Virus genome (UHGV): UHGV-0178511
Strand: one strand, 5' to 3'
Length of the DNA stretch: 35,205 nt
From: a virus
The notes under the pieces were generated by a model. It saw only the letters and a list, made by a program, of their open reading frames with translations, was not told where the DNA came from and made no database searches. The first letter of the stretch is position 1. The number at the start of each line of letters is the position of its first letter. The position numbers and the translations under genes are program-made. Of this stretch, positions 2,899-9,643 are shown piece after piece.

Positions 2899-3090
2899 TC
2901 ATACCTGGTCTCTCTCATCTGCTTCTGCTTTCGCCACCATCATTTCCAGCTTTTGTGAAAGGGATGCGGCTAACGTATGAAATTCTTCGTCTGTTTCTAC
3001 TGGTATTGGCACAAACCTGACTCCAATTTGAGCGAGGCTATGTGCCATCTCGATACTCGTTCTTAACTCAACGGGAGATGCTTTGTGCAT
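2899..3090 (-). CDS. Lambda orf63-like small protein
   Basis: 63-aa ORF; overlapping arrangement with neighbours as in lambda. Confidence 0.5.
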   Translation of the reverse strand: MHKASPVELRTSIEMAHSLAQIGVRFVPIPVETDEEFHTLAASLSQKLEMMVAKAEADERDQV

Positions 3091-3251
3091 ACAGCTCCCC
3101 GTTTATTATTTATCTCCTCAGCCAGCCGCTGTGCTTTCAGGGGATTTCTGATAACAGAAAGGCCGGGAAATACCCAGCCTCGCTTTGTAACGGAGTAGAC
3201 GAAAGTGATCGCACCTACCCGGATATTATCGTGAGGATGCTTCATCGCCAT
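3063..3251 (-). CDS. Lambda orf60a-like small protein
   Basis: 62-aa ORF overlapping the exo start by 10 bp, as in lambda. Confidence 0.45.
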
Positions 3252-3922
3252 TGCTCCCCAAATACAAAACCAATTTCAGCCAGTGCCTCGTCCATTTTTT
3301 CGATGAACTCCGGCACCATCTCGTCAAAACTCGCCATGTACTTTTCATCCCGCTCAACCACGACATAATGCAGGCCTTCACGCTTCATACGCGGGTCATA
3401 GTTGGCAAAGTACCAGGCATCTTTTCGCGTCACCCACATGCTGTACTGCACCTGGGCCATGTAAGCCGACTTTATGGCCTCGAAACCACCGAGCCGGAAC
3501 TTCATGAAATCCCGGGAGGTAAACGGGCATTTCAGCTCAAGGCCATTGCCGTCACTGCATAAACCATCGGGAGAGCAGGCGGTACGCATACTTTCGTCGC
3601 GATAGATGATCGGGGATTCAGTAACATTCACGCCGGAAGTGAATTCAAACAGAGTTCTGGCGTCGTTCTCGTACTGTTTTCCCCATGCCAGCGCCTTAGC
3701 ATTAACTTCCGGAGCCACACCGGTGCAAACCTCAGCCAGCAGGGTGTGGAAGTAGGACATTTTCATGTCAGGCCACTTTTTTCCGGAGCGGGGTTTTGCT
3801 ATCACATTGTGAACTTCTGAAGCGGTGATGACGCCGAGCCGTAATTTGTGCCACGCATCATCCCCCTGTTCGACAGCTCTCACGTCGATTCCGGTACGCT
3901 GCAGGATAATGTCCGGTGTCAT
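3242..3922 (-). CDS. exo: Lambda Exo (Red alpha) 5'-3' exonuclease
   Basis: 226 aa, [40 protein letters not shown]...; recalled as near-identical to lambda Exo. Confidence 0.95.
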
Positions 3923-4704
3923 GCAGCCACCTTCTGCTCAGTGGCTTTCTGTTTCAGGAATCCAAGAGCTTTCACTGCTTCGGCCTGTGTCAGTTCTGAC
4001 GATGCGCGAATGTCGCGGCGAAATATCTGGGAACAGAGCGGCAATAAGTCGTCATCCCATGTTTTATCCAGGGCAATCAGCAGAGTGTTAATCTCCTGCA
4101 TGGTTTCATCGTTAACCGGAGTGATGTCGCGTTCCGGCTGACGTTCTGCAGTGTATGCGGTATTTTCGACAATGCGCTCGGCTTCATCCTTGTCATAGAT
4201 ACCAGCAAATCCGAAGGCGAGACGGGCACACTGAATCATGGCTTTATGCCGTAACATCCGTTTGGGATGCGACTGCCACGGCCCCGTGATTTCTCTGCCT
4301 TCGCGGGTTTTGAATGGTTCGCGGCGGCATTCATCCATCCACTCGGTAACGCAGATCGGATGATTGCGGTCCTTGCGGTAAATCCGGCATGTGCAGGATT
4401 CATTGTCCTGCTCAAAGTCCATGCCATCAAACTGCTGGTTTTCATTGATGATACGGGACCAGCCATCAACGCCCACCACCGGAACGATGCCGTTCTGCTT
4501 GTCAGGGAAGGCGTAAATTTCTTTCGTCCACGGATTAAGGCCGTACTGGTTGGCGACGATCAGCAATGCGATGAACTGCGCATCGCTGGCATCACCTTTA
4601 AATGCCGTCTGGCGAAGAGTGGTGATCAGTTCCTGTGGGTCGACAGAATCCATGCCGACGCGTTCAGCCAGCTTCCCAGCCAGCGTTGCGAGTGCTGTAC
4701 TCAT
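3919..4704 (-). CDS. bet: Lambda Bet (Red beta) single-strand annealing protein
   Basis: 261 aa, [37 protein letters not shown]...; overlaps exo start by 4 bp. Confidence 0.95.
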
Positions 4705-4709
4705 CCGTT

Positions 4710-5126
4710 TTATACCTCTGAATCAATATCAACCTGGTGGTGAGCAATGGTTTCAACCATGTACCGGATGTGTTCTGCCATGCGCTCCTGAAACTCAACA
4801 TCGTCATCAAACGCACGGGTAATGGCTTTTTTGCTGGCCCCGTGGCGTTGTAAATGATCGATGCAGAGTGATTCAAACAGGTGCTGGGGCAGACCTTTTT
4901 CCATGTCGTCTGCCAGTTCTGCCTCTTTCTCTTCACGGGCGATCTGCTGGTAGTGACGCGTCCAGCTCTGAGCCTCAAGACGATCCTGAATGTAATAAGC
5001 GTTCATGGCTGAACTCCTGAAATAGCTGTGAAAATATCGCCCGCGAAATGCCGGGCTGATTAGGAAAACAGGAAAGGGGGTTAGTGAATGCTTTTGCTTG
5101 ATCTCAGTTTCAGTATTAATATCCAT
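4710..5126 (-). CDS. gam: Lambda Gam, RecBCD inhibitor
   Basis: 138 aa, [55 protein letters not shown]... Confidence 0.95.
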
Positions 5127-5224
5127 TTTTTATAAGCGTCGACGGCCTCACGAAACATCTTTTCATCGCCAATAAAAGTGGCGATAGTGAATTTAGTCTG
5201 GATAGCCATAAGTGTTTGATCCAT
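5081..5224 (-). CDS. kil: Kil (host cell division inhibitor)
   Basis: 47-aa product [47 protein letters not shown] from the internal Met of ORF 5081..5350; overlaps gam as in lambda. Confidence 0.8.
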
Positions 5225-5357
5225 TTTTTGGGACTCCTGGCTGATTAAGTATGTCGATAAGGCGTTTCCATCCGTCACGTAATTTACGGGTGATTCGTTC
5301 AAGTAAAGATTCGGAAGGGCAGCCAGCAACAGGCCACCCTGCAATGGCATATTGCAT
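5193..5357 (-). CDS. cIII: CIII (FtsH inhibitor, stabilises CII)
   Basis: 54-aa ORF below the track's 60-aa cutoff: [54 protein letters not shown]; ATG at 5357-5355, stop at 5195-5193, overlapping kil. Confidence 0.8.
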   Translation of the reverse strand: MQYAIAGWPVAGCPSESLLERITRKLRDGWKRLIDILNQPGVPKNGSNTYGYPD

Positions 5358-5429
5358 GGTGTGCTCCTTATTTATACATAACGAAAAACGCCTCGAGTGA
5401 AGCGTTATTGGTATGCGGTAACGCCGCGC

Positions 5430-5798
5430 TCAGGCGGCTTTGATAGTCATATCATCTGAATCAAATATTCCTGATGTATCGATATCGGTAATTCTTATTC
5501 CTTCGCTACCATCCATTGGAGGCCATCCTTCCTGACCATTTCCATCATTCCAGTCGAACTCACACACAACACCATATGCATTTAAGTCGCTTGAAATTGC
5601 TATAAGCAGAGCATGTTGCGCCAGCATGATTAATACAGCATTTAATACAGAGCCGTGTTTATTGAGTCGGTATTCAGAGTCTGACCAGAAATTATTAATC
5701 TGGTGAAGTTTTTCCTCTGTCATTACGTCATGGTCGATTTCAATTTCTATTGATGCTTTCCAGTCGTAATCAATGATGTATTTTTTGATGTTTGACAT
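5430..5798 (-). CDS. ea10: Ea10-like early protein
   Basis: 122-aa ORF immediately promoter-distal to cIII, same position and length as lambda ea10. Confidence 0.65.
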   Translation of the reverse strand: MSNIKKYIIDYDWKASIEIEIDHDVMTEEKLHQINNFWSDSEYRLNKHGSVLNAVLIMLAQHALLIAISSDLNAYGVVCEFDWNDGNGQEGWPPMDGSEGIRITDIDTSGIFDSDDMTIKAA

Positions 5799-5816
5799 CT
5801 ATTCATATCCTCACAG

Positions 5817-5844
5817 ATAAAAAATCGCCCTCACATTGGAGGGC
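5817..5844 (-). terminator. Intrinsic terminator in the pL operon (tL-like), upstream of ea10
   Basis: On minus strand, stem gccctc/gagggc with 6-nt loop followed by a T-run. Confidence 0.45.
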
Positions 5845-6058
5845 AAAGAAGATTTCCAATAATCAGAACAAGTCGGCTCCTGTTTAGTTACGAGCGACAT
5901 TGCTCAGTGTATTCACTCGTTGGAATGAATACACAGTGCAGTGTTTATTAGTATGCCTGTCTTTTAACCACATCAGGCTCGGTGGTTCTCGTGTACCCCT
6001 ACAGCGAGAAATCGGATAAACTCTATTCACCCCTACAGAGAGCAAAAGAGAAACGCCG

Positions 6059-6640
6059 ATGAACAACTCATGGTGGCAGGAACTAATGCATTTTTTCCTG
6101 CAAGGAATGACACTTAAACAGTTGATTCATATGCTAATCATCCTGATCATATTGATTATTATTATGCCTGTAAGCGTAAAAGAATGGATAAACCTGCATA
6201 ATCCAGAAATCCTTCCTCATTACTGGATGTATTACATCCTGTTGTTTTGCGTTAGCTATGTGCTTAACGGCGTTGTTAATTCCGCTTATCACGCTGTGAC
6301 TGAAAGAATTGAGATATTCGCTGCTCAGAAGCGCAAATCTAAAGAAGAGAAATACGTGCAAGATTTGTTTGATTCGTTAACTCTTGGAGAAAGAGCGTAT
6401 TTGGCATTCGCTGTAGCCGCTAATAACCAGCTAAAGACAGAAAAGGGAAGCCCTGAAGCAATCTCATTGCTCGAAAAAGGGCTTCTTATTCGGGTACCTT
6501 CTGCTACTGGATATCCTGAAATCGACCGTTTTGTTATCCCGGAACGCTATAGAAATGAGTGCTACATTAGGTTTGCTGGGAAGAAAGACAGTCTTATGGA
6601 TGAACTTATCGCTCAGGATAAGCATGGCAAAAACAAGTAA
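6059..6640 (+). CDS. sieB: Superinfection exclusion protein B
   Basis: 193 aa with strongly hydrophobic segment LIHMLIILIILIIIMPVSV; recalled as lambda/P22 SieB. Convergent with N. Confidence 0.85.
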   Translation: MNNSWWQELMHFFLQGMTLKQLIHMLIILIILIIIMPVSVKEWINLHNPEILPHYWMYYILLFCVSYVLNGVVNSAYHAVTERIEIFAAQKRKSKEEKYVQDLFDSLTLGERAYLAFAVAANNQLKTEKGSPEAISLLEKGLLIRVPSATGYPEIDRFVIPERYRNECYIRFAGKKDSLMDELIAQDKHGKNK

Positions 6641-6656
6641 TTAGCAAATTAATTTA

Positions 6657-6929
6657 TCATCTCGCCGTCAGTTGTTTTGATTTCCGGTAGCCTGCCGCGT
6701 AAATGGCTACGTTTGGCAGGCAAATACTTCCACTGCATTCATCTGCCTTCTTGCAGCGAAGGCTTCCGAGTGATGCTGCTTTGTCTGCTCTGACGCAACC
6801 AGAGAGCTTTAGCGCAATTTTTCGCGCCAGTGCTTCATTACTGCGTCGCTCGGCAATAAGTTCTGCTCTGCGAGCTTTGTAGCGGCTTTTTGCCGTACCT
6901 TTGGATTCTTTCCAGACAATGGTTACCAT
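6657..6929 (-). CDS. N: N-family transcription antiterminator with phage-21-type arginine-rich motif
   Basis: GTAKSRYKARRAELIAERR matches the phage 21 N boxB-binding peptide as I recall it; C-terminus resembles P22 gene 24. Start at the Met before VTIVWKE (ORF extends to 6959). Confidence 0.8.
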   Translation of the reverse strand: MVTIVWKESKGTAKSRYKARRAELIAERRSNEALARKIALKLSGCVRADKAASLGSLRCKKADECSGSICLPNVAIYAAGYRKSKQLTAR

Positions 6930-7039
6930 GATGGTCTCCTTTAAGTGGCTTTGGCGCATGACGCGTCGAGGTGCTTATCTTCTCGATCGCTGTCTTGCAG
7001 CTGCAATTCGCGCCATCCCCAAAACCACTCAAGTTCTGG

Positions 7040-7080
7040 TCTCAACGGTTAGGTTGAGAGTCCGTCGATGTTAAAGAGCC
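7040..7080 (-). promoter_or_regulatory. nutL (boxA plus phage-21-type boxB hairpin)
   Basis: Minus strand reads GGCTCTTTAACA (boxA-like) then tctcaac-ctaacc-gttgaga hairpin (boxB). Confidence 0.6.
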
Positions 7081-7125
7081 TGCCAATCTGTTCCGTTTGG
7101 CTTCCAGCGTCCTGCTGATGGCTTA

Positions 7126-7154
7126 AATTTAAGACTTCTTAATTTATTGGTCAA
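7126..7154 (-). promoter_or_regulatory. pL promoter with overlapping P22-type operator
   Basis: Minus strand TTGACC, 17-nt spacer, TAAATT; operator-like palindrome ATTTAAGActtCTTAATT overlaps. Confidence 0.5.
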
Positions 7155-7220
7155 GTGCATTTTTGAAGAAAACTTAATTTTATGGGCGTGAATTTAGTTT
7201 GTCTTTGATTTTTAACGGGA

Positions 7221-7243
7221 AATAAAAAAGGGGCGAAAGCCCC
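7221..7243 (-). terminator. Intrinsic terminator immediately downstream of c2
   Basis: ggggc-gaaa-gcccc hairpin followed by a T-run on the minus strand, directly after the c2 stop. Confidence 0.5.
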
Positions 7244-7894
7244 TTAAGGAAGGTTTGCTAGCTTGGCATCAACGACAACGCCAATGATTTTACAGTTCCC
7301 ATTGATTTCAATCATTGGGTATTGTGGATTGAGTGGTTTCAGGAATTTTCTACCGGCATCAATAACTAACTTTTTGAATGTCGCCTCGTTTTCCCCTTCA
7401 AGTTTGGCGACTACCAGCTTTCCATTACGTGGTTCGACTTCTGGGTCGACGAGAATAATCATCCCCTCAGGAATACTCAGTCCTGCCGGGGCAGTCATTG
7501 AATCGCCTTTAACGTCGAGCCAAAAAGAGTCTTCAGAACAATCTACCGTTGTGTCGTACCAGTTATCTATTGCACGCCTATGATATGGCTCTACAGCTTC
7601 CATCCAACATCCTGCGCTTACCCAACTAATTAGAGGATACGAACCTCTTGGATCATGCCTGCTGTGATAGGCAATGTTTGAAAGACTATCCTCTCCTTTC
7701 AACAGGTAATCAGGGGAGCACTGCAAAGCCTTGGCTAAGGCCAATAGGTTTTCGCCATTGGGCTCAGTTTCAGATCGCTCCCATTGGGAAATAGCAACAT
7801 TAGACACGCCAACCATCTTGCCAAGGGCAGCCTGCCTAATCTTGAGTTCTTTTCTGCGAGCGCGAATACGCTCACCCATCAGTTGTGTATTCAT
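7244..7894 (-). CDS. c2: P22 C2-type prophage repressor (HTH plus S24 autocleavage domain)
   Basis: 216 aa, MNTQLMGERIRARRKELKIRQAALGKMVGVSNVAISQWERSETEPNGENL...; recalled as near-identical to P22 C2. Confidence 0.95.
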   Translation of the reverse strand: MNTQLMGERIRARRKELKIRQAALGKMVGVSNVAISQWERSETEPNGENLLALAKALQCSPDYLLKGEDSLSNIAYHSRHDPRGSYPLISWVSAGCWMEAVEPYHRRAIDNWYDTTVDCSEDSFWLDVKGDSMTAPAGLSIPEGMIILVDPEVEPRNGKLVVAKLEGENEATFKKLVIDAGRKFLKPLNPQYPMIEINGNCKIIGVVVDAKLANLP

Positions 7895-7974
7895 AGTTAA
7901 GACATCTTAAATAAACTTGACTTAAGATTCCTTTGGTGGATAATTTAAGTGTTCTTTAATTTCGGAGCGAGTCT
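7895..7974. promoter_or_regulatory. OR operators with divergent pR/pRM
   Basis: P22-type operator palindromes (AGTTAAGacatCTTAAAT; ATTTAAGtgttCTTTAAT); pR -35 TTGACT and -10 GATAAT with 16-nt spacing. Confidence 0.6.
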
Positions 7975-8160
7975 ATGTACAAAAAAGATGTTATTGACCA
8001 CTTCGGAACCCAGCGTGCTGTTGCTAAAGCACTAGGCATTAGCGATGCAGCAGTCTCTCAGTGGAAAGAAGTTATCCCAGAGAAAGACGCCTATCGATTG
8101 GAAATCGTTACAGCTGGCGCCCTGAAGTATCAAGAAAGTGCTTACCGCCAAGCGGCATAA
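7975..8160 (+). CDS. cro: Cro repressor (P22 type)
   Basis: 61 aa, MYKKDVIDHFGTQRAVAKALGISDAAVSQWKEVIPEKDAYRLEIV... Confidence 0.9.
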   Translation: MYKKDVIDHFGTQRAVAKALGISDAAVSQWKEVIPEKDAYRLEIVTAGALKYQESAYRQAA

Positions 8161-8166
8161 GCAAAT

Positions 8167-8208
8167 TGCTCTTTAACAGTTCTGGCCTTTCACCTCTAAC
8201 CGGGTGAG
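8167..8208 (+). promoter_or_regulatory. nutR (boxA TGCTCTTTAACA plus boxB hairpin)
   Basis: boxA followed by ttCACCTCtaaccGGGTGAG, which I recall as phage-21-type nutR boxB. Confidence 0.6.
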
Positions 8209-8275
8209 CAAACATCAGCGGCAAATCCATTGGGTGTGCCGCTATAACTCAATATCAATATAGGAAAATTAACAA

Positions 8276-8572
8276 ATGGCACAAGCAAGCTACAGCAAGC
8301 CAACACAGCGAGAAATTGATCGCGCTGAAACTGATTTACTCATCAACCTGTCAACGCTTACCCAGCGCGGTCTGGCAAAGATGATTGGCTGTCATGAATC
8401 GAAGATAAGCAGAACGGACTGGAGATTTATTGCTTCGGTCTTGTGTGCTTTCGGAATGGCATCAGACATCAGTCCGATTAGCAGGGCTTTTAAGTATGCG
8501 CTTGATGAAATCACAAAGAAAAAATCCCCGGCCGCCACCGAGGATTTTAAGCAAATTGATATGCAATTCTGA
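8276..8572 (+). CDS. c1: CII-family transcriptional activator (P22 c1-like)
   Basis: 98 aa; C-terminus [18 protein letters not shown] parallels lambda CII KKRPAATERSEQIQMEF. Confidence 0.8.
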
Positions 8573-8595
8573 GGGAATTACTGGATCAATCCACA
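8517..8595 (-). ncRNA. Candidate OOP-like antisense RNA overlapping the 3' end of the cII-like gene
   Basis: On minus strand a hairpin plus T-run sits inside the last codons of the cII-like gene, as lambda OOP does; 5' end and promoter not confidently located. Confidence 0.35.
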
Positions 8596-8604
8596 GGAGT
8601 CATT

Positions 8605-8751
8605 ATGACAAAACAACTCAGTCCTTACCAGGACAAAATTCACAAACACATACTACGTGATCGCTTCCTGTCCAGCTTCAAGCAGCCTGGTCGATTCCGG
8701 GCTGAGTTGGAAAAAGTGAAGCTGATGCAGAAGGAGAAAGGTCATGAGTAA
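8605..8751 (+). CDS. Small ORF between cII-like gene and replication initiator (48 aa)
   Basis: ATG at 8605, stop overlapping the O-like start; P22 has a similar short ORF here. Confidence 0.35.
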
Positions 8752-9643
8752 CATATCTAATCTAGCCGAAGCCAGAGAGGCCAGAAGGCTACAACAACCG
8801 CATCAAAGCAGCGGTAAGGGGTATGCCTTGCTGCACCGTAAAATTATGGATGTGCCGTTTTACAAGGACGCAGAAGCAGCGCATCTGTGGGTTCACTTAA
8901 TCCTCAAAGCAAAGCATACGCCTGAGTATGTAATGACTGACGCAGGAGAAATTCTGGTAGGCAGAGGGAAGCTACTTGGCGGTAGAAACTCTCTGGCGTT
9001 TGAAACAGGACTCAAACCAGATCGCGTTCAGTACCTGCTTAGAAAGTTCAAAAAACTCGGCATGATTGACTGGGTTTCACACGGTAAATTCTCAGTTTTC
9101 TCGGTAGAGAAATATGACGATTATCAGTCAAATTTTGTACCAGCAGATTACCAGCAAATTACCACCTCAAAGCCAGCAATACCAATGCCTGCAAGCAATA
9201 CTGTACCAGCAGATTACCAGCAAATTACCACAGATAAAGAATATAATAATATTATCTCTAATACTGACGTATTAGAGAGTACCGCAGCAGACAAAAAGTC
9301 TGACAAGAAAAAACCTTCCGTTAGCTGTCAGGATGTTGTCGATGCTTACCACGAAATCCTTCCTGAAGCGCCAAGAATCCGCGCACTGAATGACAAGCGT
9401 AAAAACCAGATCCGAACGTTCTGGCGCAAAGCCGGAGTGATAACCCGCCAGCTTGACGGGCATGGGTTCACGATGCAGGACTGGAGAAATTATTTGAGCT
9501 ACGTAGGCGAAAATTGCCGATGGATGTTCGAAGAGCGCCCAAACCATCAACGCGGAACCGTCTGGCACAAAAAGGGATTTGATTTCCTGCTTAACGATAA
9601 TACCTACCTGAAAGTTCGTGAGGGTGAACACGATGACCGATAA
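8744..9643 (+). CDS. Replication initiator, lambda O family
   Basis: 299 aa; position after cII; internal iterons and AT-rich tract (see repeat feature). Confidence 0.8.
9138..9270 (+). repeat. Candidate replication origin: two exact ~29-bp iterons plus AT-rich tract inside the initiator gene
   Basis: gtaccagcagattaccagcaaattaccac occurs twice about 65 bp apart (encoding [10 protein letters not shown] twice), followed by aaagaatataataatattatctctaatactgac. Confidence 0.5.

Follow-up and report, generated by a model that had tools for sequence, protein, structure and literature searches.

The window, by which we mean the whole 35,205-nucleotide stretch of viral DNA analysed here (UHGV-0178511), carries at positions 6657-8208 an antitermination gene N, a prophage repressor gene, cro, and the operators, promoters and nut sites of two early transcripts (Table 1). 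The N protein scores 63.3 bits over residues 4-90 against the Pfam profile PF25694 (N_peptide; cut-off 27.9 bits) and matches PHROG 271, 'anti-termination protein N-like', with an E-value of 5.5e-34. Having passed a curated profile threshold, and being encoded by the first gene after pL in a locus with nut sites in both early transcripts, it belongs with the lambdoid N antiterminators; it is 99% identical to N of HK629 and 88% identical to N of phage 21. We note that a 100-aa open reading frame starting at 6959 was set aside as a candidate for N, being a mechanical extension of the 90-aa coding sequence.

Table 1. Coordinates of the N, immunity and flanking features in the window, with the basis of each assignment
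Feature	Position	Strand	Description	Basis
sieB	6059-6640	+	193 aa, convergent with N; inside P22-like block 5954-6719, also the source of the N tail	Pfam SieB, PHROG 1301
N antiterminator gene	6657-6929	-	90 aa plus stop (MVTIV...); first gene of the pL operon	ORF, Pfam PF25694, PHROG 271
N codons 65-90 plus stop	6657-6737	-	P22/gp24-type C-terminal tail, CSGSICLPNVAIYAAGYRKSKQLTAR; presumed RNA polymerase-binding part	
N codons 33-64	6738-6833	-	central module, LARKIALKLSGCVRADKAASLGSLRCKKADE; presumed NusA-binding part	nucleotide comparison with phage 21 and JEP4
N codons 1-32	6834-6929	-	arginine-rich motif (ARM) module, phi21 specificity	PDB 1NYB match; nucleotide identity to phage 21
N Shine-Dalgarno	6936-6941	-	AAGGAG	read from the sequence; agrees with the RBS annotated in OL657228
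nutL boxB hairpin	7040-7059	-	UCUCAAC-CUAACC-GUUGAGA	identical to the annotated phage 21 nutL stem-loop
nutL boxA	7069-7080	-	GGCUCUUUAACA	pattern scan
pL promoter	7126-7154	-	TTGACC, 17-nt spacer, TAAATT; overlaps OL1	consensus scan
OL operators	7127-7208		OL1 7127-7144, OL2 7162-7179, OL3 7191-7208	mapped from the OL657228 annotation
Intrinsic terminator	7228-7245	-	directly after the repressor gene	terminator scan; annotated terminator in OL657228
Prophage repressor	7244-7894	-	216 aa; phage 21 cI, P22 C2-like; HTH plus S24 peptidase	Pfam HTH_3 and Peptidase_S24
OR operators	7895-7960		OR3 7895-7912, OR2 7920-7937, OR1 7943-7960; with pR and pRM	
pR promoter	7917-7944	+	TTGACT 7917-7922, GATAAT 7939-7944	consensus scan
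cro	7975-8160	+	61 aa, P22_Cro family	Pfam PF14549, 96.9 bits
nutR boxA	8167-8178	+	UGCUCUUUAACA	pattern scan
nutR boxB hairpin	8190-8207	+	UCACCU-CUAACC-GGGUGA	identical to annotated phage 21 nutR
cII	8276-8572	+	98 aa; right end of the imm21-like block	Pfam Phage_CII, 114.5 bits
Phage 21-identical block	6738-8300		N codons 1-64, nutL, pL/OL, repressor, OR, cro, nutR, start of cII	

The N protein and its nut sites

The three parts of N differ in their relatives. Residues 8-29 (ESKGTAKSRYKARRAELIAERR) coincide at 22 of 22 positions with the phi21 N peptide of PDB entry 1NYB (E = 6e-7), the only match in a PDB search with N, and differ from the P22 ARM, GNAKTRRHERRRKLAIER; over codons 1-32 nucleotide identity is 100% to phage 21, 44% to JEP4 and 37% to P22. 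Codons 33-64 are 97.9% identical to phage 21 and 94.8% identical to JEP4, and this central module occurs behind the CUS-3-type ARM too. The last 26 residues are similar to those of P22 gp24 (GGSVLLPGVALYAAGHRKSKQITAR), and the DNA that encodes them (6657-6737) is 97.5% identical to HK629 and only 34% identical, that is unrelated, to phage 21. The assignments made in a first-pass annotation of this DNA, of a phage 21-type ARM followed by a C-terminus resembling P22 gene 24, are thus both borne out.

In lambda N a central part contacts NusA and a C-terminal part binds RNA polymerase. By analogy with lambda N, the central module of the window N is presumed to be the NusA-binding part and the tail is presumed to engage RNA polymerase. 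Deletion of residues 73-107 renders lambda N defective (PMC3526286). The point at which the window N parts from that of phage 21 corresponds to the start of this C-terminal region of lambda N, which is of the type found in phage 21 N and not of the type found in the window.

Each boxB lies 10-12 nt downstream of its boxA, and both nut regions agree with those of phage 21 base for base. The hexaloop of phi21 boxB is CUAACC (PMC12550061), as in both hairpins of the window, and the P22 boxB sequences GCGCUGACAAAGCGC and CCGCCGACAACGCGG differ from both. Minimum free energy folding of nut segments of 56-61 nt gave unremarkable z-scores (-0.2 to -0.8); the 61-nt nutL segment favoured another pairing, of UCGACGG with CCGUUGA, and the canonical nutL stem forms when a shorter segment is folded. 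As short boxB hairpins are thermodynamically unexceptional, the case for them rests on identity with phage 21 and on the known hexaloop. The ARM and both boxB hairpins are all of the phi21 type, as the first reading had it, and are therefore cognate to each other. We note that an Rfam scan of the whole window at gathering thresholds found no described RNA family within 6657-8208, its only match anywhere in the window being the lambda cIII thermoregulator at 5312-5370; it seems that Rfam contains no boxB or nut model reaching threshold here.

An immunity region of the phage 21 type

The repressor is identical in protein sequence to that of phage 21 (100%) and shares 202 of its 216 residues (93.5%) with P22 C2, with no differences in residues 17-53. 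Cro shares 60 of 61 residues with P22 Cro, and the cro gene is 100% identical to that of phage 21 at the nucleotide level. The operators differ from their P22 counterparts by 0 (OL1), 1 (OL2), 4 (OL3), 0 (OR1), 2 (OR2) and 1 nt (OR3), and the OL and OR regions match phage 21 at 100% identity; the annotated pL start of phage 21 (OL657228) falls at about position 7119 of the window. Repressor, Cro and operators are thus indeed P22-like, as had been claimed, at 81-95% DNA identity for c2, cro and the operators, which is homology rather than identity.

Their likeness to P22 is, however, a native property of imm21, and so it does not serve as evidence of recombination, the use to which it had first been put. 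Coliphage 21 is 99.7% identical to the window over 6738-8300, as are lambda imm21 and DE3, and HK629 is 99.6% identical over 6661-8300; these are near-identities, not chance likeness. The blastn block shared with phage 21 runs from 6738 to 8612. Those shared with P22 are 5954-6719 (sieB and the N tail, 86.8% identity), 7065-8178 (83.6%) and 8580-8751. Since P22-like c2 and cro combined with 21-type N and boxB are equally true of phage 21, the arrangement is simply imm21, and the proposal of a new P22/phage 21 hybrid circuit falls away.

We conclude, with a probability of about 0.93, that region 6657-8208 is coliphage 21's imm21 module for immunity and early regulation, that its N is modular with a gp24-type tail, and that its carrier is an E. 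coli phage or prophage of the P22-like (Lederbergvirus) type. On these alignments, the sole departure from phage 21 in the imm21 stretch is a common, previously sequenced N variant whose last 26 residues are P22-type. The region is ordinary lambdoid mosaicism and is already known.

Several known systems help to place it. With coliphage 21 the window shares an identical ARM, both boxB and both boxA elements and all six operators, the N leader lies in a stretch of 99.7-100% identity, and cII is homologous up to 8612. The full-length 99-aa phage 21 N is, however, absent from the window: the two genes diverge after codon 64, that of phage 21 ending in a lambda-type 35-aa tail with ral downstream, and that of the window in 26 gp24-type codons with sieB downstream. 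HK629 (JQ182735) shares the whole N, P22-type tail included, together with the immunity region, but its homology ends exactly at the N stop codon (6661), where it continues with HK620-like genes rather than sieB; the loop of its boxB-R is CUAACA and not CUAACC, and its classification is Lambdavirus, in contrast to the P22-like virion genes of the window. P22 has the same gene order (sieB, gene 24/N, nutL, pL/OL, c2, OR, cro, nutR), a conserved boxA core (GCUCUUUA), and the gp24-type tail and sieB in common. C2, Cro and the operators accord with P22 immC, but the ARM and boxB do not: P22 has another specificity, with its own ARM and GACAA-type pentaloop boxB, codons 1-64 of N and the N leader are without nucleotide similarity to it, and its cII/c1 region is unrelated. 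The likeness to lambda lies in an ARM acting on boxB, in boxA, in N as first gene of the pL operon and in a three-part N, and the mechanism is presumed to be shared; lambda N has 107 residues, however, a different ARM, and GAAAA/GAAGA boxB.

Over 75 aa the gene 24 proteins of phage L and P22 share 96% identity; their C-termini are unrelated, and the two proteins can substitute for each other in function (PMC8022706). That pair resembles the present one in its near-identical N-terminal parts, identical boxB and unrelated C-terminal 25-35 aa, but belongs to the P22 ARM class and has a different alternative tail.

If the module works as in lambda, 21 and P22, the C2-like repressor would bind OL1-3 and OR1-3 and so keep pL and pR off, and Cro would act at the same operators. 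On induction, transcripts from pL and pR would each carry a nut site made up of boxA and a boxB with a CUAACC hexaloop, to which the phi21-type ARM of N would bind; N, together with host NusA, NusB, NusE and NusG, would then render RNA polymerase resistant to termination, allowing it to pass the early terminators into recombination genes leftward and into cII and replication genes rightward. We infer the binding of N to boxB, its contacts with NusA and RNA polymerase, and the immunity specificity from homology. No data contradict the imm21 assignment.

As for the rest of the window, sieB and the replication and virion genes that flank the region resemble those of P22 and not those of lambda. 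Among phage records and complete E. coli genomes, none covers at least 80% of the first 25 kb; the best matches are a prophage of strain NMBU_W05E18 (71% coverage) and IME10 (57%). Taken at its full length, the window is, on these matches, a distinct mosaic built from known modules.

Junctions and the origin of the N tail

Relative to phage 21 the only junction lies within N, after codon 64, at about 6737/6738. The imm21-like block ends on the left at this exchange point, and past it lies the P22-like block of N tail and sieB, with P22 homology resuming within N at 6719. The first-pass annotation had proposed a recombination junction inside N, and alignment with gp24 and phage 21 N shows that there is one; that it marks an import of P22 sequence into a phage 21 gene cannot, however, be called with confidence, since colinearity with gp24 extends through the whole of the window N. 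The window N can be aligned with gp24 along its entire length (E = 1e-14) and fits the gp24-based Pfam profile throughout; phage 21 N matches that profile at positions 4-81 only and falls below the cut-off. The phage 21 gene may thus be the recombinant form. We would give even odds to a history in which the window N, gp24-like throughout, is the unrecombined form of the lineage and phage 21 N gained a lambda-type tail and the lambda-like ral that follows it, the opposite history being that the window gained a P22-type tail and sieB. Consistent with the former, phage 21 N shares 59% identity with residues 72-107 of lambda N over its last 37 aa, and the sieB/N-tail block has diverged from P22 about as far as the immunity core has. 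Against it, both tail types are found behind both the 21-type and the CUS-3-type ARM, so that several exchanges, in either direction, must have occurred; moreover, a lambda/21-type block (5001-5949, 97.8%) lies directly to the left of sieB, and the sieB block could therefore itself be an insertion.

It is very improbable, by comparison, that the region is a recent recombinant in which a P22 immunity core (c2, cro and operators) was joined to phage 21 N and nut by crossovers between N and c2 and inside N. The identity of that core to P22 DNA would fit such an origin, as would the lack of blastn similarity to P22 in N codons 1-64, the N leader and both boxB elements, which in forced alignment are 23-50% identical, about the level of unrelated DNA. 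Phage 21, however, has the same P22-like core at 99.7-100% identity, and 6738-8300 as a whole resembles phage 21 much more closely than it does P22 (84%), with no shift in identity from N to the repressor. The junction that had been placed between N and c2 exists relative to P22 only: homology to P22 stops on the left at 7064/7065, between boxB-L and boxA-L, and at a twin position on the right, 8178/8179, between boxA-R and boxB-R. Both boundaries are old and common to phage 21, HK629, mEp235 and lambda imm21/DE3, and every imm21 phage has this boundary with P22 at boxA/boxB.

Finally, we give almost no credence to the N C-terminus being an artefact of frameshift, sequencing error or contamination with a laboratory construct: DE3 and lambda imm21 are common laboratory sequences with the 99.7% match described above, but the tail DNA is unrelated to that of phage 21 rather than frame-shifted, the same N recurs in HK629 and in complete E. 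coli genomes (below), and the flanks are P22-like; on these grounds frameshift and laboratory-construct origins were rejected.

Immunity and the reassortment of N modules

Because repressor and operators are identical, homoimmunity is expected between the phage and lysogens of phage 21, lambda imm21 and DE3; because they are near-identical to those of P22, it may extend to P22 immC. The literature searched contained no report of a common immunity specificity of phage 21 and P22. Botstein and Herskowitz (1974) are said to have found lambda immP22 hybrids homoimmune with phage 21. Lazinski et al. (1989) reportedly transferred nut specificity by ARM swaps, and the N genes of lambda, 21 and P22 were reportedly compared by Franklin in 1985.

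At all 10 of the 10 loci read, the boxB type matches the ARM type. All four pairings of a 21-type or CUS-3-type ARM with a lambda-type or P22-type tail were found, and the P22 ARM was observed with no tail but the P22 type. RNA specificity, comprising the ARM and both boxB elements, thus behaves as a matched set, and the N tail reassorts independently of it. At least 80% of the window N gene is present in 105 of 5,426 complete E. coli genomes, in some at 100% identity, and the phage 21 form of N in 242 of the 5,426; N genes with the P22-type tail are present in 252 phage records. About 1,400 E. coli genomes match the N gene, and the partial matches point to breakpoints that recur around positions 66, 82-91, 129 and 178 of the query gene. 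Compared with JEP4-type phages, the window has three short unrelated patches, namely the ARM codons (6834-6929), boxB-L (7037-7062) and boxB-R (8188-8209), between which homology persists (N leader 74%, immunity core 84-99% by block).

The region is best labelled an immunity and N/nut module of the imm21 type whose N has a gp24-type tail, rather than a new P22 x 21 hybrid, and beyond correct annotation its importance is small. It provides a clean textbook example of RNA recognition (ARM plus both boxB) being inherited as a matched set, and of the N C-terminal tail and flanking accessory genes (sieB or ral) reassorting at a domain boundary. A more speculative idea, which we consider unlikely although the JEP4 comparison points towards it, is that N/nut specificity is switched through very small coordinated patches (ARM, boxB-L and boxB-R) and that exchange of the tail, at a fixed position following codon 64, is independent of this. 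We know of no systematic analysis of such patch-wise switching or of tail interchangeability. If the idea were true, changes of antitermination specificity in lambdoid phages would come about through repeated micro-recombination at three sites that need to match, and either tail type, lambda or P22, would fully replace the other as a means of engaging RNA polymerase.

The early-control region and its closest relatives

We have found that the early-control layout at 6657-8208, from sequence and ORF reading, is classical lambdoid, and the assignments of N, repressor, cro, cII and sieB are all backed by Pfam and PHROG scans (see table). A 100-aa ORF from 6959 is a mere mechanical extension of the N ORF. 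The first-pass annotation had taken this region for a hybrid of P22 and phage 21; the observations behind that reading were confirmed and its interpretation stood in part. When 6600-8300 was compared by megablast with 50,697 phage records, Escherichia phage 21 (OL657228) proved 99.7% identical over 6738-8300, lambda imm21 and DE3 match equally well over that span, mEp235 reaches 99.5%, and HK629 is 99.6% identical from 6661 onward. Since phage 21 and the window also have identical repressor ORFs (100%), phage 21 natively carries a P22-like repressor, Cro and operators beside its own N and nut sites. Judged by sequence, the supposed hybrid is not a novel one but the canonical imm21 module (the immunity and N/nut module of coliphage 21), a feature already known and found in public phage and bacterial genomes.

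The resemblance of repressor, Cro and operators to P22 is close. The window repressor shares 202 of 216 residues with P22 C2, with residues 17-53 unchanged, Cro shares 60 of 61, and the operators differ by 0-4 nt (OL1 and OR1 are the same, OL2, OR2 and OR3 are 1-2 nt off, and OL3 is 4 nt off). We note that the OL657228 annotation starts the phage 21 repressor late, giving 190 aa (3007-3579 of our phage 21 locus, L001); because the ORF extends upstream to 216 aa (within 3007-3660), equals the window's and is colinear with C2, the start has probably been annotated too far downstream.

Features of the early-control region, with percent identity of blocks to four phages
Feature	Position	Strand	Description	Phage 21	HK629	JEP4	P22
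sieB	6059-6640		convergent with N
N-like gene	6657-6929	minus	90 aa; starts MVTIV; AAGGAG 7 nt upstream
N tail	6657-6737			34	97.5	96	62
N central part	6738-6833			98	98	95	42
ARM codons	6834-6929			100	100	44	37
N leader	6930-7036			99	100	74	40
boxB-L block	7037-7062			100	100	46	23
nutL boxB	7040-7059	minus	UCUCAAC-CUAACC-GUUGAGA
boxA-L block	7063-7085			100	100	87	70
nutL boxA	7069-7080	minus	GGCUCUUUAACA
OL	7086-7243			100	99	84	80
Repressor	7244-7894	minus	216 aa; HTH and S24 peptidase domains	99.8	99.8	84	81
OR	7895-7974			100	100	99	95
cro	7975-8160	plus	61 aa; P22_Cro family	100	100	93.5	90
boxA-R block	8161-8187			100	100	89	63
nutR boxA	8167-8178	plus	UGCUCUUUAACA
boxB-R block	8188-8209			100	95.5	36	50
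nutR boxB	8190-8207	plus	UCACCU-CUAACC-GGGUGA
cII	8276-8572	plus

As a whole, the window represents a phage or prophage of E. coli that is P22-like (Lederbergvirus-type). Its sieB is P22-like, and it has virion genes of the P22 type, a DnaB-like helicase and an O-like initiator, together with a lambda/21-type block of gam, kil, cIII and ea10-like genes at 5001-5949 (97.8% to phage 21). No record covering at least 80% of its first 25 kb was found, so known modules are combined here in a new way. At about 5950 the mosaic changes sharply from the lambda/21-type block on the left to a P22-like sieB block on the right (5954-6719, 86.8% to P22, extending into the N tail), which places lambda-type Red/Gam functions inside an otherwise P22-like genome. 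The Rfam scan of the 35-kb window returned nothing besides RF01804, the lambda cIII thermoregulator element, matched at full length at 5312-5370 on the minus strand (88.5 bits; gathering score 50), where it overlaps the start of a cIII-like ORF (5193-5357). Within the 3' end of cII, a strong terminator-like hairpin on the minus strand (8521-8548) occupies the place that the oop terminator has in lambda. Adjoining it is a 48-aa ORF (8605-8751, plus), and the block 8580-8751, covering P22 orf48, has 90% DNA identity to P22; the PHROG label of this ORF's family, 'tail protein', looks wrong. The O-like replication gene contains two 35-nt direct repeats (9131-9165 and 9197-9231, 94% identical) that encode a repeated peptide and are probably origin iterons.

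The arginine-rich motif and its boxB partners

The assignment of the N arginine-rich motif (ARM) and both boxB hairpins to the phage 21 type held up. Residues 8-29 of the window N (ESKGTAKSRYKARRAELIAERR) match the φ21 N peptide at 22 of 22 positions in PDB 1NYB, the solved complex of that peptide with boxB RNA and the sole PDB match to this N (E = 6e-7), whereas gp24, the P22 counterpart of N, has GNAKTRRHERRRKLAIER at the equivalent place. Both boxB loops are CUAACC, the φ21 hexaloop (PMC12550061), and nutL and nutR agree with those of phage 21 base for base, while the P22 hairpins, GCGCUGACAAAGCGC and CCGCCGACAACGCGG, differ. On these matches, the window's ARM and both boxB hairpins make up a cognate φ21 pair. 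The nutR boxB loop of HK629 (locus L003, about 4020-4045) is CUAACA, a naturally occurring variant of the final loop position, where 1NYB has a C-C pair.

All cis and trans elements of an imm21-type circuit are identified and positioned. By analogy with lambda, 21 and P22, repressor and Cro would act on OL and OR, N would bind boxB of the pL and pR transcripts, a Nus-factor- and boxA-dependent complex would assemble on RNA polymerase, and the polymerase would then read through early terminators.

The junction within N

Recombination junctions had been proposed both inside N and between N and c2. By blastn, homology to P22 falls into a left stretch, 5954-6719 (sieB and the N 3' end), and a right stretch, 7065-8178 (83.6%), ending between boxA and boxB at nutL and nutR alike; these boundaries are old and common to every imm21 phage. 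The junction between N and c2 therefore exists relative to P22 but not relative to phage 21, against which the single break within 6657-8208 is the one inside N, at 6737/6738, after codon 64. Left of this point the N of phage 21 ends in a tail of the lambda type (VERKQNRIYYSKPRSEMGVTCVGRQKIKLGSKPLI), which shares 59% identity with residues 72-107 of lambda N, and ral follows, whereas the window has a gp24-type tail and then sieB. The tails of window N and gp24 (CSGSICLPNVAIYAAGYRKSKQLTAR and GGSVLLPGVALYAAGHRKSKQITAR, respectively) are similar on alignment, as had been suggested for the N C-terminus. A frameshift as the cause of the differing tail is ruled out, as the DNA of 6657-6737 is unrelated to that of phage 21 (34% identity).

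Lambda N has a three-part map: ARM, NusA-binding and RNA polymerase-binding. The break corresponds to a domain boundary, the start of the C-terminal region of lambda N, and lambda N with residues 73-107 deleted is antitermination-defective (PMC3526286). The window N is colinear with gp24 over its full length (E = 1e-14) and matches the whole of the gp24-based Pfam model above threshold (63.3 bits), whereas phage 21 N matches that model at positions 4-81 only, with 22.4 bits, below threshold; on this comparison, phage 21 N is at least as likely to be the recombinant form.

Modularity of N among phages and E. coli genomes

A protein search found 21-type ARMs joined to either tail; it also found exactly the central and tail sequence of the window behind two other ARMs, DDNARNRRRARRQAQREQA and that of P22. 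For two ARMs (21-type and CUS-3-type) and two tails, all four combinations are present in sequenced phages: phage 21 joins the 21-type ARM to the lambda-type tail, the window and HK629 join it to the P22-type tail, CUS-3, N7 and Gally combine the CUS-3-type ARM with the lambda-type tail, and JEP4 combines it with the P22-type tail. Whatever the tail, boxB type tracks ARM type in all ten loci read (window, phage 21, HK629, P22, lambda, JEP4, CUS-3, N7, Gally and, for nut sites only, IME10): CUAACC hairpins go with the 21-type ARM, CCCGCCGAAAUGCGGG at both nut sites with the CUS-3-type, GACAA-type loops with the P22 ARM, and GAAGA at nutL with the lambda ARM, lambda nutR having been missed by the scan. 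The pairing of DDNARNRRRARRQAQREQA with CCCGCCGAAAUGCGGG represents a third N specificity class, in JEP4 (L005, 1497-3060), CUS-3 (L006), IME10 (L007), N7 (L008) and Gally (L009), with the N gene read in all of these except IME10; its boxB hairpins follow the same boxA, and its immunity core is P22-like.

The window's combination of ARM and tail is common: at least 80% of its N gene is present in 105 of 5,426 complete E. coli genomes, in some at 100% identity, and the phage 21 form in 242, many of them BL21(DE3) derivatives. In 252 phage records, among them those of Stx1 and Stx2 phages, mEp213, HK140, HK106 and P22, an N gene has the P22-type tail. Partial matches suggest recurrent breakpoints near N-gene query positions 66, 82-91, 129 and 178. 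A precedent has been published: the gp24 proteins of phage L and P22 are 96% identical over 75 aa with unrelated C-termini, their boxB are identical and the proteins interchangeable (PMC8022706). We also note that window and JEP4 form a patchwork finer than 100 bp across 6834-7062, in which the N leader is 74% alike, yet the flanking ARM codons (44%) and boxB-L (46%) are unrelated. From this pattern, the specificity determinants seem to be replaced as small separate patches.
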